Shown in pieces: positions 2 to 64,000 of a stretch of 64,000 nt of DNA (position 1 is its first letter; each line of letters starts with the position of its first letter). The stretch covers positions 62,001 through 126,000 of the forward strand of contig NW_025963864.1 of NCBI RefSeq assembly GCF_023055435.1, given 5' to 3'. The stretch is from Haliotis rufescens (lineage: Eukaryota). The notes below the pieces were generated by a model that searched no databases, was not told the DNA's origin, and saw only the letters and a list, made by a program, of their open reading frames with translations. A program made the position numbers and the translations under genes.

Positions 2-1192
2 AAAGCAGAAATTAAAGCACAGTATAATTTTAGGTTCCTTATGCAAAAACAAAAGTCACAACTAATTGAAATCACCAGTTCAAAATTACTTGTATATAAC
101 TCTCCATTACTAACACTCACTTGCCCTGATGGACAAAGAATCATCACGGGTTGTTCCTTTTGCATGATAAAACTACCATGCTTGTGTTCCATCTCAACAC
201 AAGACCTCACATTTCCTGCACATCTGGGAACATGTCAAAACCTTACCCACCAGGATATCACCTACCTACATCCTGTAAACTTAGCTTTATTACAGCATTT
301 TTTTGAAGACTCTACTTTAGATACGGTTGCTGGTAATACCCTTTATAATGAACCAGTTAATGTCAAGATTCCGGATTTTCATTTTTATACACACCAGTTT
401 GCTAAAGTTATTGCTAATGACCACAAGGATCACCTTAGTCTTAAACGTATGGCTACAAGTGTTAAAAAGAATGAGGTTATCTTTCAGAGTCTAACAGACT
501 CCCTTTTGGATGGTAAAATTAATGTTCAATCTTCCTGGTTTGATCTTAGCTCCATCATTCCTTTAGGTGCGGCAGTTCTATCAGTCCTAGCCATAGCTGC
601 AATTATTTCGATGTTCTTTAAGATAAGAACTTTAACTGCCACTATCACCATCCTTCAAGCTACTGTTTCAGTAAAATCCACTCCTATCCCATCGTTCGAA
701 TATCATGATCCCACTCCACCCCCACCCAGTAATGTCTATACTATTCTTAATACAATGTATGACCACATTCCTATGATAGTTATTTCCATATCATTCGTAC
801 TGCTTTTGGTTATCCTATATAAAGTATTCACTAAGACATCAAACCATACTTTGATCTCGTTAGAACTTACCACTGGTTCTCTATGCGAACTAGTGCCAAT
901 AATGTCTCTATCATTGTGTCCATCATATTGGGATATTCACCCACCTTCCATTGTCAAAAATTTGTACATATCAAGCTACCTTAGACCTACTCTCAACGTT
1001 ACCTGGCCCCAATTCAAAATTTCTAACAAGCTTACCCAGCAATCGTTGAAGATTCCGCTTTCAGTTAGAATCTCACCATTGATGGCAAGACGTATAAACG
1101 ACATACTCTCTCAACCCTTTGCCACAAACATCCTCATCTCTCATCATGGTTTGTATGAAGTCCTTCCTATGGAGGACTACCTTCATCATTAA
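2..1192 (+). CDS. C-terminal part of an env-like membrane glycoprotein ORF of an LTR retrotransposon (5'-truncated by window edge)
   Basis: Frame is open from position 2. Cys-rich segment (CSFCMIKLPCLCSIS), N-glycosylation sequons (NLT, NHT, NVT), two hydrophobic spans (IIPLGAAVLSVLAIAAIISMFF; IPMIVISISFVLLLVILY). Intronless and lies directly upstream of a PPT and LTR. Confidence 0.7.
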   Translation, partial: KAEIKAQYNFRFLMQKQKSQLIEITSSKLLVYNSPLLTLTCPDGQRIITGCSFCMIKLPCLCSISTQDLTFPAHLGTCQNLTHQDITYLHPVNLALLQHFFEDSTLDTVAGNTLYNEPVNVKIPDFHFYTHQFAKVIANDHKDHLSLKRMATSVKKNEVIFQSLTDSLLDGKINVQSSWFDLSSIIPLGAAVLSVLAIAAIISMFFKIRTLTATITILQATVSVKSTPIPSFEYHDPTPPPPSNVYTILNTMYDHIPMIVISISFVLLLVILYKVFTKTSNHTLISLELTTGSLCELVPIMSLSLCPSYWDIHPPSIVKNLYISSYLRPTLNVTWPQFKISNKLTQQSLKIPLSVRISPLMARRINDILSQPFATNILISHHGLYEVLPMEDYLHH

Positions 1193-1318: not shown

Positions 1319-1356
1319 GCTTTTGAGGACAAAAGCTTCTCGAGACAGAGGGGTAT
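1319..1356 (+). promoter_or_regulatory. Pre-PPT hairpin plus polypurine tract of element 1
   Basis: GCTTTTG-AGGA-CAAAAGC stem-loop, then GAGACAGAGGGGTAT abutting TGTTATAGTGC. Same arrangement at 63352-63389. Confidence 0.75.
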
Positions 1357-2940
1357 TGTTATAGTGCGCAAACTTGCTTAATAATTCAAATTAAAATATA
1401 AAAATAATATTCAAAATTTATAAAATTAACTCACGTATCTTTACAGTCAAATCTCGGACATCTCACATATATGGCAGTAACTCACTTAGGTTGTAAAAGC
1501 ACGCCGCGAGACATAATTTAGACAATAGATGTCCGCTCGCATTACAGTCACCGGCTGCGTGTCAATTCCAGATTGACACGCTGACCAATAACAGTAATCC
1601 CCGTGACAAGTCGGCGGTCAGTCTAAAATGCCGACGGCTCAACTAAACGCCATGCTTTGTTTTTTTTATTACCTTATCCACTATAGGTAGACATTAGTTA
1701 GGTAATCTATGAGAATATTGTATCAACCCGGAACAACACATGAAATAACAAAGGAAGTAATTGTGACAATAAAATAAAATAATGTTTTCAAAACTAAACC
1801 AATCAGAGTTTGCTATGCGTCCCTCCACTATATAAGTAGGTGCAGGTTGACTACCAAGTCACACTGCACCTGAATAAATCTTGGAACGCTAGCAGCTCTG
1901 ATGTCATCATTTATTCTCAATTCTTCCATTCTATTTTAAGGTAAGACATTTTCATGCGTTGTTTCAATGGTTGTTTTCATTCATGTTGAATGTGTATTAT
2001 GCTTTTTGTCTCAGATTGTTTTAATTGTTGTTTTCAAATATGTTGAATGTATTTCATGATTATTGTCTTAGATTTCTTGAACATTGTATATTTTCAACCA
2101 CATGCGTTGGTTCATTATTAAGTTATTGTTTAATGTATTTTGAATCTTCAATAACGTTGCGCACTATGCCACTATAGGTGTCACTTATGAAGGTTGTAAT
2201 CAATTATGTAGGTTGTAGTAATTTCGATCAATAAAATATGAAATTAATTATTTCTGATCAACCTCTTGATAACCGTTTGATAAATAAGAAATCTAGTACA
2301 ACTATCAACAACGTCATGTCGTCAATATGTGTAGATTCATTGCTAGCAGTAATGCTGAACTTAGTTAATAGTCAGTCAGCTTTGTTCTTGATAGGAAATG
2401 AAATACCTGTAACTTGATGTTAATAGTTGAATGCACAATGCTCGTATGCGAGCTCTGCATAAAGTAGCTAAATGACACTTGTATTAGAAGAACTACGGTA
2501 ATGCGCGAAACTGCATTACCGTAATATATCTACAAATACGTCTATCATTAATGTTGCATTATTTCAGCTGACATTGGTATTGTGAATCATATGTATTGTC
2601 TTTGTTATTGTGCCGTTATTTAAAGTTCCATCCTGATCTATTTGTGTATAATGTAATGGTGATTATTTGACATGTTATAAGGTTGAAGCGAAATGCTTAT
2701 TGATTTATATTCTGAGTAGTTATGTCATAAGAAACCACGACGTTATGACAATTATTTGTAATGATATAATTTATGATTATTAGATATGATTATGTGATTA
2801 ATTGAATTGAAATGTTTATAACACACTGCACCTGAATAAATCTTGGAACGCTAGCAGCTCTGATGTCATCATTTATTCTCAATTCTTCCATTCTATTTTA
2901 AGGAAAAATTACCGTGAGACAGCACGTTCTCAATACATAC
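1357..2940 (+). mobile_element. 3' LTR of Gypsy-type element 1 (right boundary approximate)
   Basis: Starts TGTTA after the PPT. CCAAT at ~1799, TATATAA at 1829-1835, AATAAA in both internal repeat copies. Architecture matches the LTR at 53919. Confidence 0.75.
1860..2903 (+). repeat. 82-bp exact direct repeat (1860-1941 / 2822-2903) bracketing a predicted 962-nt GT-AG intron (1941-2902)
   Basis: Both copies are identical. Copy 1 is followed by AAG|GTAAGA. Copy 2 ends TTCTTCCATTCTATTTTAAG|G. Confidence 0.85.
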
Positions 2941-9800: not shown

Positions 9801-12800
9801 TGCAAGTATTGCATCAGCATGTATGTCAATAAATGCGACAAAACCCTTCCACAGCCACACGTAATATCTGCTGGTCGATCGTATCAAATTTTGACCCGTT
9901 GACACTTATCGGACTTTCAAAAATAAAATAATGTATATACTATTAACATATTTTCGATTTCACCTCTTCAAGAACAAGATATATTATCAAAATTGTGAGC
10001 ATATTATTAAAACAAAATGAATCTATGAATGGGTCACCGAAATCGAATATATCTTTGTGTATGAGGTTCATTAAAAATAATGGGAGTTGGTGGATGCTGT
10101 GTGGTTTGGTGTTTTTTGTCACATTTTAATATTTTACGCTCTAATGACTTCTTGAATCTACTGATACAGCATACTTCTAATAAGTGAGTAGGGGTGTGTA
10201 AGTTAGTTTTAGCACTGCAGAATACACCAGCATACCCCGACAGCCAGTAATCTAATCAACACAACTAACAAACTAGCATGTGTTACATTCGACCGCGTCT
10301 GAATAGGATGGCCAACATCCCACGAACGTCGCCTAGCCTGACCACAGGTCGTCTCTTTTATGTAGACAAACGTTTACATATGTTACTGTAGGCCAGGTTT
10401 ATTCCAGATTTCCCACACGGGTCCCTTCGCAATACCACACCCTACATGCTGACCACTATCATCTGTTATGTTGGTGATATGTCTTTCTAGTTGATAGCTT
10501 GTTTCCAATTCTAGCTGTACGCTGATTTTTTTTTTTCAACTTAAGGAACTAACCTTTTTGCCACAGCATATACATATTAAATAGCAGACACATTGGTAAA
10601 TGTTTAAACCAAATCGCCCCTGATGAAGTCAATGATGCGACACAAATAGGCATACACATGATACTTTCATCTCTGTCTCCTTCCGGTACATATGTACCAG
10701 GAAAGGCAGGTCGACAGAGCTGCCTGTTTCCGGATTGACTTATGGTTATCACAAATGCATCTTTGTATTATATTTAGAATTTCAATATATGTACTAGACA
10801 AAGCACTATCCATAACCAAAAGAATATTTCAGAGTCAAAAAGAGTCCATTCAACGAGACTGACCACATATGTGTTTGTGAATCATTATACCGAGCTTGTT
10901 TCTTATTTAATTACAAATTGAAGAAAAAGCTGTTGTTAAATTTGGTTGTTAAATGGATGGTTTCCCTGACTGAATTAAGGTTTTGAAAACTGGATTTACA
11001 GACGGACAGACAGACGGACAGTTTATTCAGTAATTTAGGCATCAAGGCCCATAGCACAATGCAGTTTGGATATTAACATTTGTCACGTGATGTACATGAT
11101 TAGATTTTAAATCAAGTTACACATTCCTCATTATAAAGACATGTTTTAAGAAAACAAAAACATCATGGATCAAATCAGGATTTTCAGAGTTTAGAAGATT
11201 TATCATTAACCGACAGTCTTTAAAAATACCTTGCAACATGGGGAGAAATTTGTACCCTTGATGGGAATACGTTTCACATATAAGTAAGACATGGTATTCA
11301 TCCTCTACTTCTCCGGATGAACAGTTTGTTTAAATAAAGATCACAATATCATCGTCTTCGGACCTGCGACATATATTTACATTAAAATTATGCAATGAAA
11401 TTACAAGTTCCAATAAGCTCTGATTAAACTTTTATCATTTAAACAAGTTAAATATCTTTCAGTTTGTAACAATGATTTTACTTTGCTGTAATTGCTAAGA
11501 TAAAGTGATTTAGAAATACTTTGGTGCCACTTAAACCGGCAGCCCAGAGCACTTTGGTCAAACGAACAAGGTACCAATATCCGAACACAGGAACATTTAC
11601 TGTGTAACCCAACATATTCATATATGGATGTCTGCCGGGGAGCCCCTGCTGCGTGTGGCCCCTGGCCCCCCAAAAGAAGGGGCCATTCAAGGGCTGGATC
11701 AAACATTGGAGGTACCACATGAAAGTAAGTGTAAATGAACTGGTTCATCTCACAGAGTACAGAATGGGCCACGCCAGACAAATCTTCCTCTGTTTAAGGC
11801 CTGCCAGACACCCCCAGAGAGGGTCCAAAATTTGGGCTGGGTTAAACAATGGAGGTACCACATGAAATCAACATAAAATGAACTATTACACTCTACTAAG
11901 TATGAAATACCCGTTGCCAGACAAATCGTCTGCTGCATAAGGCACGCCAGACACCCCCAAATGTTGACCCTTAAACGCACTCAGTGGACACTCTGGTAAA
12001 ATTTGACTAGAGTATACATTCAAAGTACCAGATGAAAGTAAGTTTAGATGAACAGGTACATGTTACTGAGTACAACACGGCCCATACCTGACAAATATTC
12101 CTCTGCATAAGGTCCGCCAGACCACCCAGAGAGGGTCCCAAAATTTGGGCTGGGTTAAACATTGGAGGTACCACATGAAACCAACATAAAATGAACAATT
12201 GCACTCTACATATTACAAAATACCCATTTCCAGACAAATCTCACCCTCACCTCTCCCCACACAGTTGACCTTCTGTAATCCCAGTGTGCATAATGAAACA
12301 TAGGAGGCAGAAGAGCATTGGACATCAGCTCTGAGAGTCAACAGATGGTCAAATTTATGTTTTGTTCTTAGGCTTATCAACGATATGCCTAATCTATGAT
12401 ATCAATACTAGTATTCAGAGACCTGATTTTATAAATACGTGATTTTAATCTCAATAAAATCCTTCCATCTTTAAGAACAAAACATAAATTTGACCATCTG
12501 TTGACTCTCAGAGCTGATGTCCAATGCTCTTTTGCCTCCTATGTTTCATTATGCACACTGGGATTACAGAAGGTCAACTGTGTGGGTTGGGGTGAGGGTG
12601 TGTCTAGCGGGCCTTATGCAGAAGAGGATTTGTCTGGAAATGGGTATTTTGTAATATGTAGAGTGTAATAGTTCATTTTATGTTGGTTCCATGTGATACC
12701 TCCAATGTTTAAGCCTTATGCAGAGGAAGATTTGTCTGGTGTGGCCCATTCTGTACTCTGTGATATGAACCTGCTCATTCAAACGTACCTTAATGTGGTA

Positions 12801-13879
12801 CAATCGATATATATTCCAGACCAATTTTACCCGTGTATACCTGAAGGGTAAACTTTTTGTGGGTATCTGGCGGGCCTTATACAGAAGATTATTTGTCTGG
12901 CAATGGGTATTGTGCAATAAGTGCAATTGTGCAATTGTTCATTTTATGTTGGTTTCATGTGGTACCTCCAATGTTAAACCCAGCCCACATTTTGGGACCC
13001 TCTCTGGGTGGTCTGGCGGACCTTATGCAGAGGAAAATTTGTCAGGTATGGGCCGTGTTGTACTCAGTAACATGTACCTGTTCATCTAAACTTACTTTTA
13101 GTCAAATTTTACCAGAGTGTCCACTGAGTGCGTTAAGGGTCAACATTTGGGGGTGTCTGGCGTGCCTTATGCAGCAGACGATTTGTCTGGCAACGGGTAT
13201 TTCATACTTAGTAGAGTGTAATAGTTCATTTTATGTTGATTTCATGTGGTACCTCCAATATTTAACCCAGCCCAAATTTTGGAACCCTCTCTGGGGGTGT
13301 CTGGCAGGCCTTATGCAGAGAAAGATTTGTCTGGCGTGGCCCATTCTGTACTCTGTGAGATGAACCAGTTCATTTACACTTACGTTCATGTGGTACCTCC
13401 AATGTTTGATCCAGCCCTTGAATGGCCCCTTCGTTTGGGGCAGACATCCATATATGAATATGTTGGGTTACACAGTAAATGTTCCTGTGTTCGGATATTG
13501 GTACCTTGTTCGTTTGACCAAAGTGCTCTGGGCTGCTGCTCTAACTCTTGACAACTCGTATATCCTTTAGTCGTTGCTTAAATGAATAAACAAATAACAA
13601 TAAGGGGAGGATAGACTATGTCTACTCACGCTTCTCATTGTAACCATCGCATCGCTTGTTGTGTCTGTTGTATACAAAATACATACAGTCGTATTCTGTG
13701 TGACAGGTCACAGCACATAATACCAGGTTATTGTAAAGAACAGAGAACCCTGGTTTTGCTTTCTCATCGCTGTTGACATCCTGTTTTCTGCATATATAGG
13801 ACGTTTGATAAACACTGGTAGAGTTAACTGTCCAAGAGAAGCATATGCAGCAGAAGGTCCCAACTCCGAGGAGCTTCAT
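3893..13879 (-). CDS. Gene A: secreted PAN/Apple-domain + PLAT/LH2-domain protein, ~260 aa, 5 exons
   Basis: Exons 13879-13630, 8328-8242, 6110-5944, 5576-5490, 4084-3893; all GT-AG, phases 1,1,0,0, total 783 nt. Signal-like N-terminus; PAN motif CAVTCHTEYDCMYFVYNRHNKRC; PLAT motifs TYRIHIKTGKERGAGSKADLVLIIKG and DDWFVEYVLV...WLS. Confidence 0.75.
4280..5150. mobile_element. Dispersed ~0.9-kb non-coding repeat, probably a non-autonomous DNA element; other copies at ~19590-20420 (inverted) and ~47520-48430
   Basis: Shared blocks such as GTATCGACTCGA(T)CCGTG, TGATCAATGATGAC, CAGCTGGTTG, TACTCCAATGAACTCA. Confidence 0.65.
6275..6560 (+). mobile_element. tRNA-derived SINE, family B (copies 23176-23435 +, 50334-50410 - partial)
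   Basis: A-box-like TGGCCCAGTCGTCTAAG, B-box-like GGTTC(G/T)AATCCC, (CACT)n tail. Three recognisable copies. Confidence 0.7.
6870..7840. repeat. 13-bp minisatellite (GTGACCAGTGTYC)n with a higher-order 364-bp duplication
   Basis: About 70 units. The variant block TGTGTTCATAACAATTGTTC recurs at 7041 and 7405. Confidence 0.95.
9190..9760 (-). pseudogene. Dead duplicate of promoter + exon 1 (PAN exon) inside gene A intron 1
   Basis: Translates as TVYVRSSVYQTSHKCRKQD..., but ATG is changed to AAG, there is an in-frame stop at 9245 and a frameshift. 9660-9750 resembles 14115-14180. Confidence 0.65.
11000..11538 (-). mobile_element. 3' fragment of a non-LTR retrotransposon (LINE)
   Basis: Minus strand encodes NCSSGEVEDEYHVLLIC (C-terminal Zn-knuckle motif) and ends with AATAAA plus a (CTGT/CCGT)n tail at ~11000-11027. 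Confidence 0.65.
11539..13536. mobile_element. ~2-kb foldback / long inverted-repeat element with internal subrepeats
   Basis: 11539-12370 is the reverse complement of 12472-13536 (right arm has extra subrepeats at ~12600-12900). Central loop ~100 nt. Confidence 0.85.
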
Positions 13880-22500: not shown

Positions 22501-25500
22501 CATGCTGACAACATTTCAACAGGCATTATCTCAATACTGTGGTTGTGGGAGTCCACCACACTGGTGTTCAGGCGACGATGTGGTCACTCGCTGTTCGTTG
22601 ACCTTTCACTGTTTGAACTTAAACGATTGACACTGCAACTTAAGCGATGTCTAATCAGCTGCCAGGCGCATATCACTTTGCACTAACTTGTCCTCGCGAT
22701 CACGACCAGCCATATGATACTGACAAACTCGAATATCTTTGGATGTTATTATATGTATGCTACATTATGCCAGCAACAGTCATGATGGTTGTGAAAGAAG
22801 ATGTTGTCAATTTCCTGAAATCGGTTACACTTGCTATTCTGAATGAAAATTGAAGGGGTATATTTATTCCAAGGTACTGATTGGAAATAATTTTGACCAT
22901 TACATTAATAAAACACTTACCTCTACATACAAGGAAAACAGTACACAGATAACCAAGCTTGTGTCCTCCAGCTCGCCTCGTTTGCATGACAAGACGCGCA
23001 AAAAAGTGTCCTCTGGGAGAAGCTGTCTCTTAAATTTCTGAAATGTTATCCTTCGGTAACAATATTGGACCAACATAGGAACCTGTGGGCGAAATTTCCA
23101 GTCACAGCCAACGATACCAAGCGTCTTAAGACCATCTGGGATGTCGTGCACAGTTTTATAAAGTCATTTTATAATCCTAGTCGTCCAAGGCGCCGCGATT
23201 CGCTGTACAGAGTTGCGTCCCTTGGGCACGCCCGAAAACTATGGTTCGCGGGTTCGAATCCCGGTTCGCTCCGATTATGTTTTTAGGTTTGTCAGCACCA
23301 TACCCGTGCTCGTGGGTTTCACCGAAATGGTAAACGTCTGAGACCTGCATCACTTCGGGTTTTCATCCCACAGTAAGCTGATACGACGTGATATAACCTT
23401 AATACTGTTAAAAGCGGCGTTAAAACCAAACTCGCTTTTCTTTAGTGGAAGAGTGAATGTGATTAGGGGATATATTTGTTATATTTTCCAGCAATTTTCC
23501 AACAATGAAAAATGTAACCATTCGCTTGGATATAAACTAAGCGCCACCTTTGACGGCGCTCCAGTCGGAAATCGTGTAGTTACCTGCAATGTGCATCATC
23601 GTTCTTCAACTACATTCTAGTCGGGAACAGTTTAGTTACCTGGAATGTGCATCGTCCTCCTTCAGCTTAATTCCAGTCGGAAACAGTTTAGTTACCTGGA
23701 ATGTGCATCATCGTTCTTCAACTACATTCTAGTCGGGAAGAGGTTAGTTACCTGGAATGTGCATCGTCGTTCTTCAGCTAGATTCCGGTCTGTAACAGTT
23801 AAGTTACCTGGAATGTGCAACGTCGTCCTTCAGCTACATTCCGGTCTGTAACAGTTAAGTTACCTGGAATGTGCAACGTCGTCCTTCAGCTACATTCCGG
23901 TCTGTAACAGTTAAGTTACCTGGAATGTGCAACGTCGTCCTTCAGCTACATTCCGGTCTGTAACAGTTAAGTTACCTGGAATGTGCAACGTCGTCCTTCA
24001 GCTACATTCCAGTCGGAAACAGTTTACTTACCTGGAATGTGCATCGTCGTCCTTCAGCTAGATTCCAGTCAGGAAGAGTTTAGCTACCTGGAATGTGCAT
24101 CATCGTTCTTCAACTACATTCTAGTCGGGAAGAGGTTAGTTACCTGGAATGTGCATCGTCGTTCTTCAGCTACATTCCGGTCTGTAACAGTTAAGTTACC
24201 TGGAATGTGCAACGTCGTCCTTCAGCTACATTCCGGTCTGTAACAGTTAAGTTACCTGGAATGTGCAACGTCGTCCTTCAGCTACATTCCGGTCTGTAAC
24301 AGTTAAGTTACCTGGAATGTGCAACGTCGTCCTTCAGATACATTCCAGTCGGGAACAGTTTAGCTACCTGGAATGTGCATCATCGTTCTTCAACTACATT
24401 CTAGTCGGGAAGAGTTAAGTTACCTGGAATGTGCATCGCCATTCTTCAACTACATTCTAGTCCGGAACAGTTTAGTTACCTGGAATGTGCATCGTCCTCC
24501 TTCAGCTTAATTCCAGTCGGAAACAGGTTTGTCACATGGAATGTGCATCTTCGTTCTTCAGCTACTTTCTAGTCGGGAACAGTTTAGTTACCTGGAATAT
24601 GCATCGTCGTTCTTCAGCTACATTCCGGTCTGAAACAGTTAAGTTACCTGGAATGTGCAACGTCGTCCTTCAGCTACATTCCAGACGGGAACAGTTTAGT
24701 TACCTGGAATGTGCATCGTCCTCCTTCAGCTACATTCCGGTCTGATACAGTTAAGTTACCTGGAATGTGCAACGTCGTCCTTCAGCTACATTCCAGTCGG
24801 GAACAGTTTAGTTACCTGAAATGTGCATCAATGTTCTTCAACTACATTCTAGTCGGGAAGAGTTTAGTTACCTGGAATGTGCAACGTCGTCCTTCAGCTA
24901 CATTCAAGACGGGAACAGTTTAGTTACCTGGAATGTGCATCGTCCTCCTTCAGCTACATTCCGGTCTGATACAGTTAAGTTACCTGGAATGTGCAACGTC
25001 GTCCTTCAGCTACATTCCAGTCGGGAACAGTTTAGTTACCTGAAATGTGCATCAATGTTATTCAACTACATTCTAGTCGGGAAGAGTTTAGTTACCTGGA
25101 ATGTGCAACGTCGTCCTTCAGCTACATTCCAGTCGGGAACAGTTTAGTTACCTGGAATGTGCAACGTCGTCCTTCAGCTAGATTCCAGTCAGAAAGAGTT
25201 TAGTTACCTGGAATGTGCAACGTCGTCCTTCAGCTACATTCCAGTCGGGAACAGTTTAGTTACCTGGAATGTGCAACGTCGTCCTTCAGCTAGATTCCAG
25301 TCAGAAAGAGTTAAGTTACCTGGAATGTGCAACGTCGTCCTTCAGCTACATTCCAGTCGGGAACAGTTTAGTTACCTGGAATGTGCAACGTCGTCCTTCA
25401 GCTAGATTCCAGTCAGAAAGAGTTTAGTTACCTGGAATATGCAACGTCGTCCTTCAGCTACATTCCAGTCGGGAACAGTTTAGTTACCTGGAATGTGCAA

Positions 25501-53918: not shown

Positions 53919-55860
53919 TGTTACAGTGCATATGTTTCATTACACTTTTTATATTTTTAACAAATTAAACTTAAACTAGGAAATTCTAAAATTCGAAAGT
54001 CGCTAGACCAGTATTTCTCGTTTTTATCACCACTGGTCGGCCATGACGGCTGCTCCTTGGCAAGCTCATTCACGCGAACAGTAAATTACGTAATCATAGA
54101 TAAAGTCGGCGCGTACGTCCGCCCCGGCCCTTGTTCTCTTGATAAATGTTTTGTTACCAGCTGGCGCAGGTTTTGACCACCATCTTAAACTATAATTAAA
54201 ATAAACTCTTCTCAGGCAATACTGATACCATTCTATTACCACCTGCTTTTGTGTAGTCAACTTTGACAGCCCAGGGCAGATAACAGAGACCGAAATTACA
54301 ACTTCAAAGTAATTGTTAATGTGATAAGAGTAGAGCTGTGGGGGTATATAACTCCTTGGGTTTTGGTCCTCAGCACACTTGCTTGAATAAACCCTAAGGA
54401 CCTCACAGCTCTCTTCTCTCTTGTTTCAAGGTAAGAAACATTTAAATATTCTTATTTTATGACTAAACTTCTTATTTCATTGTTATTATTGTCTAGAAAA
54501 TGTTATAGTTAAGTTGAATCAGTACTGCCATATTGTAACTCTCAATCTACTGTGTACAAGTTCTAAATGACTGTTCATTATATATATTATTTACTGTTTA
54601 ATACACAGTAACTTCCCGGTGTTATTTGAAGTGTAATGCGTCGTGGGCTCCTCCAGTTTATGTGTCATTAATATGCGGCACCAATAGTTCTCTCCTATAT
54701 TTCGACATCCATAATTATATTCCCCTTCTATGTCTAACATCATCTGTTCAAAATGCCAGATGCATATACAGTTTATATTTCCGTGCAGTAGCGTAGCGTA
54801 CATGTAGCTTAGTCACAAAACGGTTCCTAGAGTTAACACAACTGTTTCAAGCGAGATTTATTACTAGGTTGGTTATTCCATACTTTCCGACAGTCCACCA
54901 ATCAAAGGTTATATGTGCAGCTTTACCTTCCGTGTGCGCTTACAGAATAGCCTATAACAACGCATTCCATATTTCTTAGGTTTTATCTTCATCAAGTAAG
55001 TATTTGAATATATTGTAAAGAGTCCCGTCCCTCATATAGTTGCATACGCTGCAACACAGCCTATACCACAATTTCATTACCGTAGTCATTTAAATACTGT
55101 TAAAGTCATCTTTTATACTTCATAATGACGTACATTCAAACGCGCACCGTTCAAGTATACAATTGCCGTATTAACTCCATTAGCTGTTATCGTCTAGCTC
55201 CGTATATATGTAGGAAATGCGCGTAGTCAATAGCAACATAGCCGCGGTGATTCATTACCGTAGTCACCAAAGTAATCACTACTAAAACTAATAATTACTC
55301 TAACTAAAACTGAGCTATATCTTCTACCGCGTACATTCGTATCTTTATTTGGATCAAGTATTTACTTTCTGTATTTGCCGAAATTATTATGTTGTGATAA
55401 TTATGACTGAAACTACAAATATTAATTTTTATCGTCTTTTCATAAGTAAATGTCATGTTCCTCATCAAAGCAGTTGGTGCAGTCTACCGTACATGCTCTA
55501 TTAAAATGTTACGACTTCTCAATTTGGCTTTTAAGAAATGTTATTTGGCATTACCGTTATTATACTTGTAAATACCGCATATGTTGTATAATGTTACCGT
55601 ACATACTCCAATATTAATTACATTGCTTTTATTATTATGCCTTTATGAGATGGACACTGTGTTAGCATATTATGATCATTATTATCATTGTATGTCACTA
55701 TTATATATAAATTGATGTAACTCGAATGATACGACACTTGCTTGAATAAACCCTAAGGACCTCACAGCTCTCTTCTCTCTTGTTTCAAGGCTAGCTCCCA
55801 ATAGCTAATTCCCCAAACCGAGGCCTGACAGTATTGGAATCCCAACAAGGCTGTCTTAAT
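53919..55860 (+). mobile_element. 5' LTR (~1.94 kb) of element 2
   Basis: TGTTACAG start shared with 63390. TATATAA 54345-54351. Ends before the TGG of the PBS. Confidence 0.85.
54375..55790 (+). repeat. 57-bp exact direct repeat (54375-54431 / 55734-55790) bracketing a predicted 1359-nt GT-AG intron (54431-55789)
   Basis: Identical copies containing AATAAA and CTCTCTTCTCTCTTGTTTCAAG. Copy 1 is followed by GTAAGA. A third copy plus donor lies in the 3' LTR at 63846-63907. Confidence 0.88.
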
Positions 55861-55871: not shown

Positions 55872-56059
55872 TTCGATCCTCGGTGCCTGGAGCCAGCCTT
55901 GTGAACTACAAGTTGAGACTGTGACGTTACCTGTACCTGACTCCACACTACCACCACCACCTCCACAGCTTGACACCACACTATGCCTGCTGACACCATC
56001 GTCCCCTACAGAAGCAACAACACAGTCAGTCTCATCTTACCCAGCAACAACCCCCAGTA

Positions 56060-59000
56060 ATGGCACAGATACATCTCCCTAAATACACAGGTCAGCAGGA
56101 TGCTGAAAGTTGGTGGGCAGATTTCTACAACTTCAACTTCCTTCATGGTCACACAGACACCCAATCCTGTAGAATTCTACCCTTCTACCTGGACGGAGCT
56201 GCTAAAGTATGGTTCAGGGACCTCCCTGCGCACACACAGCTGGACATCCACTTGCTGAAAGCAGCCTTTCAGCAACGATTCCGAAGTTCGCCAGCTTTCA
56301 ATTTGAGTCTTCTTGACATGACACAGAAGAAACAGGAGGACGTTGGAGACTTCATCACCAGGGTCCAAGCATCTGCGTTACACTCCTGCTTACCACAATC
56401 TGTGATAGTAGCCATTGCAATCAATGGGCTACTCCCACAGATTAAGCAGTGGGTGTATATGAAGGAGCCATTGACCCTGGATGAGGTTCGTCACCATGCC
56501 CAACTGGCTGTACAATCGCAGGCCCCAAGCAAGGAAGAGGTCAGCTTGGTCCAACAAGTTGAGCAATTAACGAACTTGGTGACCATGCTGATCACTACAA
56601 ACAAGGTCTGTGCTGTACAATCAGCAACTCCCTCATCCCACCATCAGCAGCACGAGCCCCAGGTCCAGCAACAGCCACCCTCCCCATCACCAAGATACCA
56701 CCAGCAACCACAACAGGAACCATACCAACCACAAGAGGATCCATACCAGTCACCACAGCAGTACCAACCACCACAGGAACAATACCAACCACCACAGGAT
56801 CCATACCAGTCACCACAGGAACTATACCAGTCACCACAAGAACCATACCAACCACCACAGGAACCATACCAGTCACCACAGGAACCATACCAACCACCAC
56901 CACAGCAGTACCAACCACTACAACATCAATACCAGATACGGCAGGAACAATATCAACCACCACAGCACTATCAGCCACCACAGAAGGAGTATCCAGTTCC
57001 ACCACCTCAGCCCCACCACACAGCACATCAACAACAACAGACGCCATCCTTCTACCCGTACAGCTCCAGCAACAGTCAAAGTCTGCCAATTCCACAGCAC
57101 CTTCGAGGCAGATGTCGCGGATGTGGTGAGTTTTTTCGGTTCCCTCACAATTGCCCTCATAGAAATACAGTCTGTAATTATTGCTCACGCATAGGTCACC
57201 ATGCAAAGGTATGCATGCGCGCATACTATGCACAATATCAACAGCCACAGGGACTCATACCTGATACTCAGCGTTCTGGGGTCAGGCAAGAGTCAGCCTT
57301 TGTATCACTTGTTGCTCCCTTGACAAAGAACACTGTTCATGTCAAGGTTAAACAAGTGAGAACTACAGCTCTTGTTGACACAGGTGCATCAGTTAGCTGT
57401 GTCAGCATGGGCTACTTAAATAAAGTTGGCATCAAACCCTCTCATTTACACCCATCTCACCTAACTGAAATCATAGGTGTAGGTGGTGAAAAACATTCTG
57501 TGCTAGGTTCTGTCTCTCTTGACATTAACATAGGGCATATCTACCTCCCCCAAATCTTTCATGTCTTTCACAACTTACATCACTCTCTCATCTTAGGCAT
57601 TGACTTCCTTGAATTAAACAAAGTCACTATAGACCTGCCCTCAAAATGTCTTCACATACATGAAGGTCTTGTTTCAGTCTCTCTGGCATCAATCAATGGA
57701 GGCTACGCAAGACCATGCAAGTCTGTAATTATTCCTCCACACTCTCAAGCTGACATTCCCATCAAAATTTCTCATTGTCAACAAGGTCAAGTTTTTCTTC
57801 TTGAACCAGTTCCGGCATTAAATGACATGCAGCTCCAAGGTGCTAAGTGCCTTATAACCAACAATCCAAAATCAGCTTGCATGAGATTGCTTAATGCTAG
57901 TGACAGCCAGGTCACTTTATATTCAAAAACAGTGGTTGCTGTAGCCTCAGAGATTGACCCCACATCTGTCCTTGACCTTCCTGACACTTCTGATTCTGAT
58001 CCTCCTACTACTACAAGTGCTAACACAACACATTCACAGGACATTGACTTTGATATAAGTGATGCAGACCTCACACATGAACAACAAACACATTTACGTG
58101 CATTTCTCCAATCACAAAGGTCAGTTTTTGCCTCAGATTGGTCAGAATTAGGACACACCCACTTACATCAACACAGAATAGAAACAGGTGATGCCAGATC
58201 GATTAGACTCCCTTTTTACAGGCAAAACGCAGCCATAAGAAAAGAATGTTCAAGACAGGTGAAAGAAATGTTAGATGCCAATATCATTCAACCTTGTTCT
58301 TCTGAGTGGCACTCACCTGTTGTCATGGTTAAGAAACGTGACAGCTCTTACCGCTTTGCCGTAGATTATAGACGTCTCAATGCAGTTACTAAGCCTATAT
58401 TTTTTCCTCTGCCACGTTTTGAAGATGTCGTTGATGCCGTAGGTGACAGCCATGCCAAAATCTTTAGTGTGCTTGATTGTGCTAGTGGCTTTTGGCAAAT
58501 ACCACTCCACCCAGATACAAAACACAAGTCAGCCTTCATTACGCCTGATGGTGTTTTTGAATGGAATCGCCTTCCTTTCGGCCTCAAAAATGCTCCTATG
58601 GCATTTCAGCAAACCATTTCAGAGGCACTAAAAGAGATGAATTGGCGTTACATATTGATATATGTCGATGACATAATAATATTTTCTAAAACCTTTTCTG
58701 AACATCTGAATCACCTCAAGGCAGTATTCCAAAAGATCAGTGAAGCAGGCCTCACTCTAAAACCCAGCAAATGTAAATTCGCGACAAAACAAGTTACCTA
58801 CTTAGGGCATATCTTCAGTAAAGATGGCATCCATGTTGATCCTTCCAAAATAGATTCAGTCACACAGATTCCACCTCCTAAAAATGTCCATGACGTGCGC
58901 CATTTCCTAGGTTTGGCATCATATTATCGGAAATTTGTAGCAAACTTTTCGGGCATTGCCTCCCCTCTTTACAATCTTCTTAAAAAAGATGCATCTTTCG

Positions 59001-61885
59001 AATGGTCATACAATTGTCAACAGGCATTTGAAAAGCTAAAACATGCCCTTACAACTGCACCTATCCTCGCATACCCTGACCAAAACCAACCCTTCATCCT
59101 CACAACTGATGCATCACAAACTGCAATAGGGTACATCTTAGGCCAACTTGATCCTCAAGGTAGAGAACATGTAATATGTTATGGCGGCCGCTCTCTCCAT
59201 ACTGCTGAAAAGAATTGGGGTATCACACATCTAGAATGCCTGGCCGTCCTAGAAGGTATTAAAAACTTCAGGGTGTACCTTGCAAATGGATCATTTTCTG
59301 TTTACACAGACCACAAAGCTCTGACTTGGCTTAAGAAAACCAAACATGACTCTGGTCGCCTTAGTAGATGGTCCCTCATGCTGCAAGAGTATGATTTTGA
59401 GATCATACACAGGCCAGGCAAAGCCAACACAAATGCAGATGCCTTATCTCGCATTCCTCATGCAGAGCAAGTACATCAACCTAACACTGATGATATACCC
59501 TCCCCACCCATTTCAACAGAACCCATCTCATCAACCCTCACATATGAACAAGTAGCTGCCACTGCTTCATCTCCACTCTTACCCACTCCAACTTCACATT
59601 CGATGTCACCATCAAGCAGCCCCAAAGTGTCATTCCCTCATCACCAAGGCAACATGAGGCCTACTCCCTCGACTGCCACTTCTCACCATTATGCCAATCC
59701 CAATACAGGCAACATGAGGTTTACACCCTCGACTGCCACTTCTCGCCATTATGCAAATCCCAATGCAGGCAACATGAGGTCTACACCCTCGACTGCCACT
59801 TCTCACCATTATGCCAATCCCAATACAGGCAACAAGAGGTCTACACCCTCGACTGCCACTTCTCCCCATTATGCCAATCCCAATGCAGGCAACAAGAGGT
59901 CTACACCCTCGACTGCCTCTTCTCTCCATTATGCCAATCCCAATACAGGCAACAAGAGGTCTACACCCTCGACTGCCACTTCTCACCATTATGCCAATCC
60001 CAATACAGGCAACAAGAGGTCTACACCCTCGACTGCCCATTCTTCCCATTATGCCAATCCCAATACAGGCAAAAAGAGGTCTACACCCTCGACTGCTCAT
60101 TCTTGCCATTACGCCAATCCCAATGCAGGCAACATGAGGCCTACACCCTCGACTGCCTCTTCTCTCCAACATGCTTATTCTCACTCAGCCAACAAGAGGT
60201 CTACACCTTCAACTTCCTTCACTCGCCAATATGCTTATTCAAAAGCAGGCAATATGAGGTCTACACCCTCAACAGCCTTATCTCACAAACCAGCCAGCCA
60301 TGCTCATCCAAGTCCCATGCCACCTACTGACAAGAAGACAAATAAGTCGGTCACCATTGCTACAAAATCCTCCAACAACAGTGTCCACACCAAACTACCA
60401 TTCATGTCTCGTCCCTCCAGCCAACTGAGGTCTTCTTCCTCTTCAACCAAATCATGCTCATCTCCACAAAACAACTTTCCAAAGCATACAAACATTGACA
60501 ATGACACTCTTGACTCACACAGTGTCTCATCAGAAGATATCAGTAGAGATGACATAACATCCTCTATATCTGTAGACTTTGTCTACAAGTCGGGTCCTCA
60601 CGATCCTCCTTCAGGCCCTATGGTCTTTGCTATAGGAACTGATCTTGATGATAAAGACTTGGCAGAAAAGCAACGTAAATCCCCTGACCTTTGTCCAATC
60701 ATGGACTACATTGAAAAAGGTGAAATTCCTTCCACCTATACAGATGTTCAAGTCAAGGGTCTAACTGGCCTTGCTCAAGAGTATGACATACGTGATGGTA
60801 TTCTGTACCACTTCTATCATGCAAAGCATCGAGGTCAGAAAAACAATCGCCCTCCTATGGTAACACAGCTAGCTGTCCCTGTCTGCTGTCGCAAAGAGCT
60901 TCTTTTTGCCTACCATGATTCCAAAGCTGGTGGTTGCCACTTTGGACGAGATGCCACTCGTCAGACAATACTCACAAAGTATTACTGGCCAGGCTTATAC
61001 CAGGATATTGAGAATTATGTCAAGTCCTGTGATGACTGCCAACGCTCCAAAAGAAGGACAAATGCTAAGCCAGCACCAATGGTGCCCATGCCTATTGAGG
61101 ACACATTCTCTCGTCTCCATGTTGACATCCTCGGGCCATTGCCTGAGACTAAGGAAGGTTATAAGTATGTTCTCCTTGCAGTTGATTCCTTCTCACGCTG
61201 GACAGAAGGTTTCCCTATGCGCACTCAAGAAGCCTCCGAGGTTGCATCAATCCTGTTCACTGAGGTTTTCTCACGGTTTGGTGCTCCCCGTACTCTTCTT
61301 ACTGACAGAGGTAGGCAGTTCACTTCCAAGCTAGTAAATGCTCTCTGTGAACTCCTCGATATCAAGCACTACTACACTTCGTCCTACCACCCCCAGACTA
61401 ATGGGATGTGTGAAAGGAGGAACAGTGTCATAGAGCAGGCTCTCCGAACATATGCTGACCCTGATCAGACCAATTGGGCCAAACTCATTCCATGTGTTAT
61501 GATGGCCATGCGCAATGTACCTTGTCAATCTACAGGGTATTCACCACACTACCTTCTGTTTGGAAAGGAAATGAATCTTCCTTTTGACACAACCTTGCTG
61601 CCTAAATCTACCCTCGGCAAAGATGCACAGGGTCATCTTCAAGATCTCTTGAAAAATCTGAATGTTGCAAAATCCCTTGCAAAGGACAACATGTCTGCTG
61701 CTCAGGATAAAAGCAAGAATCTTCAGGATATCAGAGCCAAGGAACCTTCATTTGCAGTTGGTGATCAGGTTCTCATGACTGATCCAACTGTCAAAACTGG
61801 CCTTTCCCCCAAACTGTCAAAGAAATGGACCTTACAGAATCATTCGCATCGGTCTAAACCATACATTCAAACTACTGAACACTAA
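56060..61885 (+). CDS. Gag-Pol polyprotein (gag, CCHC, protease, RT, RNase H, integrase); C-terminus frameshifted near 61827
   Basis: CNYCSRIGHHAKVC zinc knuckle; ALVDTGAS protease; RLPFGLKNAP/YVDD RT; TTDAS...TDHKAL RNase H; HHCC and D,D,E integrase (HVDILGP, TDRGRQF, YHPQTNGMCER) in Ty3/Gypsy order. Confidence 0.97.
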   Translation: MAQIHLPKYTGQQDAESWWADFYNFNFLHGHTDTQSCRILPFYLDGAAKVWFRDLPAHTQLDIHLLKAAFQQRFRSSPAFNLSLLDMTQKKQEDVGDFITRVQASALHSCLPQSVIVAIAINGLLPQIKQWVYMKEPLTLDEVRHHAQLAVQSQAPSKEEVSLVQQVEQLTNLVTMLITTNKVCAVQSATPSSHHQQHEPQVQQQPPSPSPRYHQQPQQEPYQPQEDPYQSPQQYQPPQEQYQPPQDPYQSPQELYQSPQEPYQPPQEPYQSPQEPYQPPPQQYQPLQHQYQIRQEQYQPPQHYQPPQKEYPVPPPQPHHTAHQQQQTPSFYPYSSSNSQSLPIPQHLRGRCRGCGEFFRFPHNCPHRNTVCNYCSRIGHHAKVCMRAYYAQYQQPQGLIPDTQRSGVRQESAFVSLVAPLTKNTVHVKVKQVRTTALVDTGASVSCVSMGYLNKVGIKPSHLHPSHLTEIIGVGGEKHSVLGSVSLDINIGHIYLPQIFHVFHNLHHSLILGIDFLELNKVTIDLPSKCLHIHEGLVSVSLASINGGYARPCKSVIIPPHSQADIPIKISHCQQGQVFLLEPVPALNDMQLQGAKCLITNNPKSACMRLLNASDSQVTLYSKTVVAVASEIDPTSVLDLPDTSDSDPPTTTSANTTHSQDIDFDISDADLTHEQQTHLRAFLQSQRSVFASDWSELGHTHLHQHRIETGDARSIRLPFYRQNAAIRKECSRQVKEMLDANIIQPCSSEWHSPVVMVKKRDSSYRFAVDYRRLNAVTKPIFFPLPRFEDVVDAVGDSHAKIFSVLDCASGFWQIPLHPDTKHKSAFITPDGVFEWNRLPFGLKNAPMAFQQTISEALKEMNWRYILIYVDDIIIFSKTFSEHLNHLKAVFQKISEAGLTLKPSKCKFATKQVTYLGHIFSKDGIHVDPSKIDSVTQIPPPKNVHDVRHFLGLASYYRKFVANFSGIASPLYNLLKKDASFEWSYNCQQAFEKLKHALTTAPILAYPDQNQPFILTTDASQTAIGYILGQLDPQGREHVICYGGRSLHTAEKNWGITHLECLAVLEGIKNFRVYLANGSFSVYTDHKALTWLKKTKHDSGRLSRWSLMLQEYDFEIIHRPGKANTNADALSRIPHAEQVHQPNTDDIPSPPISTEPISSTLTYEQVAATASSPLLPTPTSHSMSPSSSPKVSFPHHQGNMRPTPSTATSHHYANPNTGNMRFTPSTATSRHYANPNAGNMRSTPSTATSHHYANPNTGNKRSTPSTATSPHYANPNAGNKRSTPSTASSLHYANPNTGNKRSTPSTATSHHYANPNTGNKRSTPSTAHSSHYANPNTGKKRSTPSTAHSCHYANPNAGNMRPTPSTASSLQHAYSHSANKRSTPSTSFTRQYAYSKAGNMRSTPSTALSHKPASHAHPSPMPPTDKKTNKSVTIATKSSNNSVHTKLPFMSRPSSQLRSSSSSTKSCSSPQNNFPKHTNIDNDTLDSHSVSSEDISRDDITSSISVDFVYKSGPHDPPSGPMVFAIGTDLDDKDLAEKQRKSPDLCPIMDYIEKGEIPSTYTDVQVKGLTGLAQEYDIRDGILYHFYHAKHRGQKNNRPPMVTQLAVPVCCRKELLFAYHDSKAGGCHFGRDATRQTILTKYYWPGLYQDIENYVKSCDDCQRSKRRTNAKPAPMVPMPIEDTFSRLHVDILGPLPETKEGYKYVLLAVDSFSRWTEGFPMRTQEASEVASILFTEVFSRFGAPRTLLTDRGRQFTSKLVNALCELLDIKHYYTSSYHPQTNGMCERRNSVIEQALRTYADPDQTNWAKLIPCVMMAMRNVPCQSTGYSPHYLLFGKEMNLPFDTTLLPKSTLGKDAQGHLQDLLKNLNVAKSLAKDNMSAAQDKSKNLQDIRAKEPSFAVGDQVLMTDPTVKTGLSPKLSKKWTLQNHSHRSKPYIQTTEH
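59646..60275 (+). repeat. 60-bp in-frame tandem repeat (~10 copies) between RNase H and integrase
   Basis: Encodes GN(K/M)RSTPSTATSHHYANPNT-like 20-mers. Confidence 0.95.
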
Positions 61886-62417
61886 CACAAACAAAGAACA
61901 TAAATCCTTCATTCATGCCAACAGACTTAAAACTTATACACCTCCAACCCCTCGAAGACAACATGCACAACCAGCTCAGCATCTAGCAACACCCACTCAG
62001 TCGACGGCCTCCCAGCCCGACAATCCTCGTAGAGAAGCCTCACAAACAGCCCAGCATCAATCAAATCCAACTCAGTCAACATCCTCCCATCCTGACAACC
62101 CTACCACAACACAGCACACTTCCGTAGAGCATCCCATTATGATACCTCACCACTCGTCTGATAACTCTGACAATATTCCACAGAGTCCCACATCATCTGC
62201 CCAACCAGATGATCAACTTTATGCTGTAAAACGCATACACAAAGCTAAAAAGAAGTCAGGAGTAACTCATTACCTAATTGAATGGGAAGGTTACCCCCAA
62301 CGCACCTGGGAACCTGCCTCCAACCTTAGTGCAGAAATGATAAGTGATTACCATACATTTAGAACAGGATCTGGTCACAGACGGAAACGGAAACACAGAT
62401 ATTTTGCAAAATCATAG
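61827..62417 (+). CDS. Out-of-frame integrase C-terminus: GPY/F motif, linker and chromodomain
   Basis: Open frame from 61827: GPYRIIRIG...FIHANRLK...LYAVKRIHKAKKKSGVTHYLIEWEGYPQRTWEPASNL. Confidence 0.85.
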   Translation, partial: GPYRIIRIGLNHTFKLLNTNTNKEHKSFIHANRLKTYTPPTPRRQHAQPAQHLATPTQSTASQPDNPRREASQTAQHQSNPTQSTSSHPDNPTTTQHTSVEHPIMIPHHSSDNSDNIPQSPTSSAQPDDQLYAVKRIHKAKKKSGVTHYLIEWEGYPQRTWEPASNLSAEMISDYHTFRTGSGHRRKRKHRYFAKS

Positions 62418-63389: not shown

Positions 63390-64000
63390 TGTTACAGTGC
63401 ATATGTTTCATTACACTTTTTATATTTTTAACAAATTAAACTTAAACTAGGAAATTCTAAAATTCGAAAGTCGCTAGACCAGTATTTCTCGTTTTTATCA
63501 CCACTGGTCGACCATGACGGCTGCTCCTTGGCAAGCTCATTCACGCGAACAGTAAATTACGTAATCATAGATAAAGTCGGCGCGTACGTCCGCCCCGGCC
63601 CTTGTTCTCTTGATAAATGTTTTGTTACCAGCTGGCGCAGGTTATGACCACCATCTTAAACTATAATTAAAATAAACTCTTCTCAGGCAATACTGATACC
63701 ATTCTATTACCACCTGCTTTTGTGTAGTCAACTTTGACAGCCCAGGGCAGATAACAGAGACCGAAATTACAACTTCAAAGTAATTGTTAATGTGATAAGA
63801 GTAGAGCTGTGGGGGTATATAACTCCTTGGGTTTTGGTCCTCAGCACACTTGCTTGAATAAACCCTAAGGACCTCACAGCTCTCTTCTCTCTTGTTTCAA
63901 GGTAAGAAACATTTAAATATTCTTATTTTATGACTAAACTTCTTATTTCATTGTTATTATTGTCTAGAAAATGTTATAAAGTTGAATCAGTACTGCCATA
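63390..64000 (+). mobile_element. 3' LTR of element 2 (partial)
   Basis: Near-identical to 53919-~54531. Confidence 0.97.

Follow-up and report, generated by a model that had tools for sequence, protein, structure and literature searches.

When a spliced RNA is reverse-transcribed, its introns should be lost. The self/non-self rule of HUSH is built on this erasure, and retroelements would need long non-coding introns to evade it, as set out in the accessible part of Seczynska et al. (PMC8770142). Chromodomain-bearing 'ancient errantiviruses' have been described in Cnidaria, Mollusca and Annelida (Chary and Hayashi, eLife, PMC13524379, in the sections available), and in the accessible text of a survey of long terminal repeats (LTRs; PMC3601003) the word 'splice' has no match. 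The present study concerns a stretch of 64,000 nucleotides from Haliotis rufescens (RefSeq assembly GCF_023055435.1, contig NW_025963864.1, positions 62,001 to 126,000, forward strand; hereafter the window), which holds parts of two LTR retroelements, the env-bearing element A and element B. In the 3' LTR of element A, between the unique 3' (U3) and unique 5' (U5) regions, the repeated region (R) stands twice, as blocks R1 and R2, the second of which forms the end of a predicted intron. To judge from the DNA, a spliced intron that is rebuilt by the element itself is very probably the best explanation of this arrangement. The feature exists and extends across a clade, and as an LTR layout it is a variant not found in print: no published report of this layout was met in a literature search whose scope did not extend to most subscription papers and Repbase reports.

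The following parts of element A lie in the window:

2..1192, + strand: 3' part of the env open reading frame (ORF; F-type fusion glycoprotein), its start lying upstream of the window, with homologues carrying Baculo_F (PF12259)
1347..1356, + strand: polypurine tract before the 3' LTR, recognized by sequence, the stretch being also found in element B
1357..2932, + strand: 3' LTR, TG..CA, 1576 nt
1357..1859, + strand: U3 (promoter part)
1829..1835, + strand: TATA box, 31 nt 5' of block 1, the spacing being -30/-31 in 7 of 8 families
1860..1940, + strand: R1 (block 1), predicted first exon, with AATAAA at 1873-1878 and an AAG end at the donor
1941..2902, + strand: predicted intron of 962 nt, from GTAAGA to a pyrimidine tract and AAG, with R2 as its 3'-terminal 81 nt
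2822..2902, + strand: R2, exact copy of R1 and source of the 3' splice site, with AATAAA at 2835-2840
2816..2821, + strand: putative minus-strand transfer junction, the bases before R2, varying from copy to copy
2903..2932, + strand: U5, 30 nt, next to which the primer-binding site follows in the 5' LTR
2933..2936, + strand: target-site duplication ATAC, equal to the 4 bases preceding the 5' LTR

The order along this LTR is U3-TATA-R1, GT...intron...R2-AG, U5, with R1 equal to R2. Positions 1860-1941 and 2822-2903 match exactly over 82 nt, and no extension is possible at either end; the 82nd base is a G common to the donor GT and the first base of U5, and thus the exon-like unit R comprises 81 nt. 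The block coordinates and signals given in an earlier reading of the window, made from its letters alone (the sequence-only reading), namely TATATAA at 1829, AATAAA near the block start and GTAAGA at 1941, were all verified in the sequence; AATAAA stands at 1873 and 2835, and the AG acceptor at 2901-2902. The 5' LTR of element A, whose recovery was proposed there as a check, was found upstream of the window (G000:C86:53818-55385; L002/L031); it has the same layout, contains the second block, and its two blocks are 100% identical. The 5' and 3' LTRs differ by 6 substitutions and 9 gap columns. Paired TG..CA LTRs, a polypurine tract, a primer site and a short target duplication are all present in element A, and 4-bp target duplications were found in two other copies besides the one with ATAC. 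The primer site of family A is TAGTGGAGA in 3 of 3 5' LTRs (L031:2888-2900; L004; L006), unlike that of its relatives, which is TGGTGGAG(A). Transcription of element A would start at or beside the first bases of R1, and the AATAAA of R2 (2835-2840) would end its RNA.

Thirty further gypsy elements of the Haliotis rufescens genome were fetched, four of which (L074, L084, L092 and L096) had no recoverable LTR. Eight families of this genome (A-H) possess the layout, with introns of 693-1982 nt; in families C-H, which cover this same range, it consists of a TATA box, a 43-78-nt block ending in AAG^GTAAG, the intron, and the block once more, this time with a pyrimidine tract and AAG at its end. In two quick reverse transcriptase (RT) trees, for which only Shimodaira-Hasegawa-like approximate likelihood-ratio (SH-aLRT) support is available, A-H form one clade (98 and 99), and RT identity to B among these intron-keeping families is 66-80%. 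Seven more distant gypsy families of the genome have no such internal repeat in the LTR. Three elements in metagenome contigs of other hosts (L213, L214 and L221; introns 218-479 nt, RT 51-53% identical to B, donors CAG^GTATGT and CAG^GTGAGA) share the layout and form a second supported clade; the bases that follow differ, and so the repeat stops exactly at AG in them. They are the readable positives among 79 loci considered in metagenomes and metagenome-assembled genomes (MAGs), where loci shorter than 3 kb were skipped and most others had no full LTR. The two intron-bearing clades (99, 93) stand in an open fork with an intron-less family, and one or two origins both fit. No relatives were found in scans of viral contigs.

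Among the 11 elements R, intron, U3 and U5 cannot be aligned between families at E<=1e-3, except for one 26-nt match, and the arrangement is nevertheless the same, as the sequence-only reading had supposed when it spoke of a layout conserved without conserved DNA. Its view of a clade-wide trait was borne out too, the intron-bearing families being grouped and not scattered on the RT tree. Its description of the two elements as independent and sequence-unrelated examples had to be abandoned: RT/RNase H of A and B are 66% identical, a 57-nt stretch before the polypurine tract is common to both (84%), and both belong to one clade, which shows shared ancestry and not a second origin.

A GT donor, a pyrimidine tract (pyrimidine share 0.55-0.86) and an AG acceptor are present in 11 of 11 elements. 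The donor motif AG^GTR(A/T)G occurs at about 1 in 1,100 positions in these LTRs, yet it stands at the end of block 1 in all 11. Enrichment of UGUA at the 3' ends of the introns, also suggested earlier, does not apply to element A, where TGTA occurs once in the last 150 nt versus 2.7 times per 150 nt elsewhere; its frequency is higher at this end in 7 of the 11 introns.

According to the proposed mechanism, transcription would start at R1 of the 5' LTR, as the TATA spacing suggests, and splicing between the GT that follows R1 and the AG at the end of R2 would give the RNA a front composed of cap, R, U5 and primer site. In the 3' LTR the RNA would traverse U3, R1 and the intron and would be cleaved within R2, upstream of the AG, so that the intron would be kept at the back end. 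Probably, U1 bound to the adjoining donor keeps the AATAAA of R1 from acting, by analogy with HIV-1 and foamy viruses. Strong-stop DNA, reaching from U5 through R to the cap, would jump to R2 at the 3' end and then copy the intron, R1 and U3; if it jumped to R1 instead, or if R1 and R2 recombined, a precise intron-less LTR would result. As each new R2 would be a copy of the parental R1, the blocks would stay identical and the scar of the transfer would fall before R2.

The genomic copies carry marks of copying that may be compared with this scheme. Minor alleles shared by R1 and R2 within an LTR number 18 in family A versus 4.0 expected (21 LTRs; 0 of 20,000 permutations), 3 versus 0.28 in family B (21 LTRs, p 0.0008) and 7 versus 1.15 in family H (12 LTRs, p 0.001), and the shared variants span the block, being found at positions 60-76 of 81 in A and at 55 of 62 in H. 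In several elements a variant is present in R1 of both LTRs and absent from R2 (L033/34, L045/48, L046/47, L043/49), and in one the reverse is the case (L044/52); these are the one-cycle states to be expected if a new R2 comes from the 5' R1 and a new R1 from the 3' R1. In family B none of 1,935 windows varies more than the 6 nt that precede R2 (11 haplotypes in 22 copies), whereas the 22 copies show no variation in the 6 nt that precede R1. The base preceding the block in this family is G in 20 of 32 R2 rows versus C in 29 of 29 R1 rows; G also precedes R2 in 8 of 20 rows in family D and in 19 of 20 in family F, where C is found at R1. Two of 20 copies of family D have the upstream bases of R1 itself, that is captured U3, before R2. 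In families B, D and F the scar is distinct and stands at R2, not at R1. Cap copying appears as an untemplated G in Ty1. A literature search for cap copying in LTR elements gave nothing usable, and the point rests on Ty1 and L1. In L1 the untemplated G was ascribed to cap copying (PMC9341517, in its accessible part).

Family E has no AATAAA in the block. The sole one in the scanned LTR is located 8 nt before R2, in 20 of 20 junctions, and therefore the RNA of this family most likely ends inside R2. The concerted blocks, the scar before R2 and the signal of family E together point to an RNA that starts at R1, carries a single R and no intron from its cap to U5, and has its 3' end in R2, where the intron is kept. 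Because the deleted stretch is bounded by a donor and an acceptor in 11 of 11 elements, splicing is the simplest route, and the DNA marks favour a spliced 5' end of the RNA.

Precise intron-less LTRs of the order U3-R-U5 account for 25 of 129 anchored LTRs: 10 of 54 in family B (and one more ambiguous), 8 of 36 in D, 7 of 28 in H and 0 of 11 in A, for which an exact-pattern search gave 0 matches with an intron-less LTR versus 11 with the control pattern. One element has only one of its LTRs intron-less. Precise loss of this sort agrees with a strong-stop jump to R1 or with recombination of the two blocks, and splicing is not proven by the loss itself. The intron is dispensable in the short term, yet persistent. 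Its loss is one-way and it is kept as the majority form in eight diverged families, which argues for selection; the likeliest benefit would be better expression and export of genomic RNA together with removal of the poly(A) signal from the 5' end.

However, a number of facts weigh against a spliced, self-rebuilding intron. Elements with both LTRs intron-less exist in families B, D and H, and one of them combines an open pol frame with LTRs that are 100% identical; a cycle therefore does not require the intron in cis. R2 would have to be spliced in the 5' LTR but polyadenylated in the 3' LTR, which is not explained by any result; definition of the first exon with the aid of the cap is our guess. 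Branch-point motifs are weak: in a search of eight families loose candidates were found in six and none in families D and E. In family A the scar is weak (5 haplotypes in 16 copies, top 4.6% of windows) and the extra G is absent. The haplotype and G counts come from related copies and best-scoring matches and are not independent events, and the G of family F may be a single inherited change. Finally, none of the listed runs that contain the sequence is recorded as RNA, and in three runs guessed to be RNA and one other, all consisting of contigs only, neither an R1^U5 or R1^env joint, nor a spliced read, a cap or a poly(A) loose end was seen. These data are evidence neither way, since contigs are unable to phase an 81-nt repeat and the spliced joint has the letters of the genomic R2-U5; for the latter reason junction reads 1940^2903, offered earlier as a check, are a poor test, and only reads anchored in U3, the cap or R1/R2 variants are informative. 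The RNA-type contigs run through U3, R1 and the intron unspliced, as RNA of a 3' LTR should, although they may contain DNA. Contig cover is near zero beyond the LTR, and one contig stops at position 35 of R2 with an unrelated loose end.

Several other explanations of these data were considered. If there were no splicing, the stretch would be kept at the 5' end of the RNA, RT would hop from R2 to R1 by homology during strong-stop synthesis and then to the 3' R2, and the splice-like ends would have no role but U1 binding, by which poly(A) signals would be muted. An identical scar in front of R2 and a measure of homogenisation would result, muting by U1 without splicing is known in HIV-1 and foamy viruses (accessible part of PMC12789967), and spliced RNA is indeed missing from the contig data. 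Nevertheless, we consider this improbable, as it leaves unexplained why, in all 11 elements, the ends of the repeat coincide to the nucleotide with a donor and with an AG acceptor and its pyrimidine tract, and it predicts homogenisation fading in the 3' direction, where shared variants are in fact present in families A and H. Slightly less credible still is a start of transcription at R2 as an ordinary R, all upstream sequence being U3 and R1 a duplicate that gene conversion would keep similar: such a start would likewise leave a cap-type scar at R2, but in 7 of 8 families the TATA box precedes R1 by 30-31 nt, the bases preceding R1 appear before R2 in family D, conversion has no reason to halt at splice sites, and the AATAAA of family E would lie upstream of the start, just 8 nt away. 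Recent tandem duplications or assembly artefacts, which the 100% identity of the blocks in young copies might suggest, have a negligible chance of being the cause and are refuted by the listed copies, which comprise dozens of insertions spread over many contigs, concern both LTRs and extend to unalignable families and to other hosts, with older copies sharing lineage variants between the blocks.

Another possibility, in our opinion an unlikely one, is that the intron is real and self-rebuilding but is a neutral or selfish passenger. It agrees with the existence, in families B, D and H, of intron-less elements whose two LTRs are intact; against it, the loss is one-way and 25 of 129 LTRs have already undergone it, yet eight families as diverged as 66-80% in RT identity to B keep the intron in most copies. 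This view concerns the purpose and not the mechanism, and it is compatible with the spliced intron preferred here. Going beyond the present elements, it may be proposed with some hesitation that LTR retroelements can keep a long non-coding spliced intron indefinitely through duplication of the first exon, that this device can arise repeatedly, and that its carriers would pass as intron-containing host genes and escape the surveillance of intronless transcripts. Exons end in AG, and hence a copy of exon 1 at the end of an intron makes its own acceptor, which would allow such repeated origin. The elements considered appear to keep their intron through a change of LTR layout alone. This layout breaks the U3-R-U5 template, would give a new answer to the problem of 5' versus 3' poly(A) signals (clearest in family E), and means that LTR annotation misplaces R and U5 across a whole molluscan clade, and the natural pairs of intron-bearing and intron-less LTRs make the benefit of the intron directly testable.

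Element A has gag, pol and env frames, several of which are broken in the window copy. Its pol frames follow the order protease-RT-RNase H-integrase, matching element B, where this order was found by Pfam and corresponds to Ty3/gypsy (Metaviridae), and in both elements a chromodomain (PF00385) was detected above the cut-off C-terminal to the integrase. The sequence-only reading called element A env-bearing, and the ORF upstream of the LTR is indeed an F-type env by its homologues (at least 120), many of which, among the matches listed, carry Baculo_F PF12259. A direct Pfam scan of this env gave no match, and a PDB sequence search gave 0 matches; the top Atlas clusters are Baculo_F (0.94-0.97), flagged as weak by the recognition score. 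The closest named homologues among the matches listed are from abalones (97%, 73%), followed by other molluscs. Element A is a new member of a known element group. In the window, element B comprises:

53919..55858, + strand: 5' LTR, with R1 at 54375-54430, intron at 54431-55789 (1359 nt), R2 at 55734-55789 and U5 at 55790-55858
from 55861, + strand: primer site
55994..62417, + strand: gag-pol encoding RT, RNase H and integrase, plus the chromodomain frame; an env was not seen
63390..64000, + strand: start of the 3' LTR, cut by the window end, with R1 at 63846-63901 and then GTAAGA

The pol of element B contains about ten in-frame 60-nt repeats between RNase H and integrase (window 59640-60290). 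DIRS and Ngaro elements have a tyrosine recombinase, split repeats and no integrase; this identity was rejected, the integrase domain rve being present and a recombinase match being absent. A Penelope-like identity was rejected as well because of the DDE integrase and true LTRs, in place of a GIY-YIG endonuclease and pseudo-LTRs.

Some other observations were made at these loci. A CTAATTCCCC-type motif is found in U5 of families B, D, E, F and H (window 55802-55814; L064:4100-4110) and also near the LTR end of the intron-less outgroup family L078 (5324-5334), although the DNA of these families cannot otherwise be aligned; the motif may serve as a signal for priming or packaging. In 10 of 30 loci of family A (L012-L019, L022 and L030) a foreign insert is present at one site about 10 nt before R1 (window 1849-1859), with a target duplication of about 10 nt, varied 5' truncations (80 to >1500 nt) and varied short-repeat tails. 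The longer inserts encode RNase H, and all this looks like a target-specific long interspersed element hitting the LTR start site, presumably one of the I group. An 87-nt duplication covers most of R in L018, R2 occurs twice in the family B copy L059 (U3-R1-intron-R2...R2-U5), and a deletion takes out the 3' half of R2 in the family D copy L161. Copies of family D are found in 518-nt satellite or in head-to-tail runs sharing LTRs, and family F forms tandem arrays of partial LTRs (L066/L067; G000:C614:174233-198582; G000:C112:37372431-37379631). Gypsy relatives of the intron-bearing clade occur in bacterial MAG contigs (L284-L286), most likely as misbinned DNA of the host animal. The window also contains a 56-nt tandem array of about 64 copies (23448-27000) and a nest of inverted repeats (11500-13550).

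Among known systems, element A looks most similar to the molluscan errantiviruses with a chromodomain and an F-type env that Chary and Hayashi described (PMC13524379), with which its sequence shares a Ty3/gypsy gag-pol, an F-type env, a chromodomain after the integrase and molluscan relatives. In the accessible part of that work the LTRs are treated as plain repeats, 'splic' has 0 matches and 'intron' one in the main text, and 'Haliotis' has no match among the rows listed of the master table. Penelope-like elements, according to the available text of Craig et al. (PMC8557442), likewise keep a 5'-UTR (untranslated region) intron through retrotransposition, tied to a terminal repeat (pseudo-LTR), but they have a GIY-YIG endonuclease and partial tandem pseudo-LTRs, and a duplicated first exon is not described in that text; element A, in contrast, is a tRNA-primed LTR element of the integrase type, whose intron would be rebuilt by strong-stop transfer. 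The 5' LTR of HIV-1 and foamy viruses, as presented in the accessible part of PMC12789967, also has a splice donor near the AATAAA of the R region and U1-dependent poly(A) muting, with a single R and unspliced genomic RNA, whereas in element A muting of R1 by the donor would take place in both LTRs, and splicing would affect the genomic RNA itself. With the standard U3-R-U5 LTR, so far as it is described in the accessible text of PMC3601003, PMC5371799 and bioRxiv 10.1101/2022.12.06.519325, element A shares TG..CA ends, a TATA box, AATAAA, a polypurine tract, a primer site and, where R begins, a transfer junction, but R is present twice in each of its LTRs and the signature of the junction is found at the second copy.
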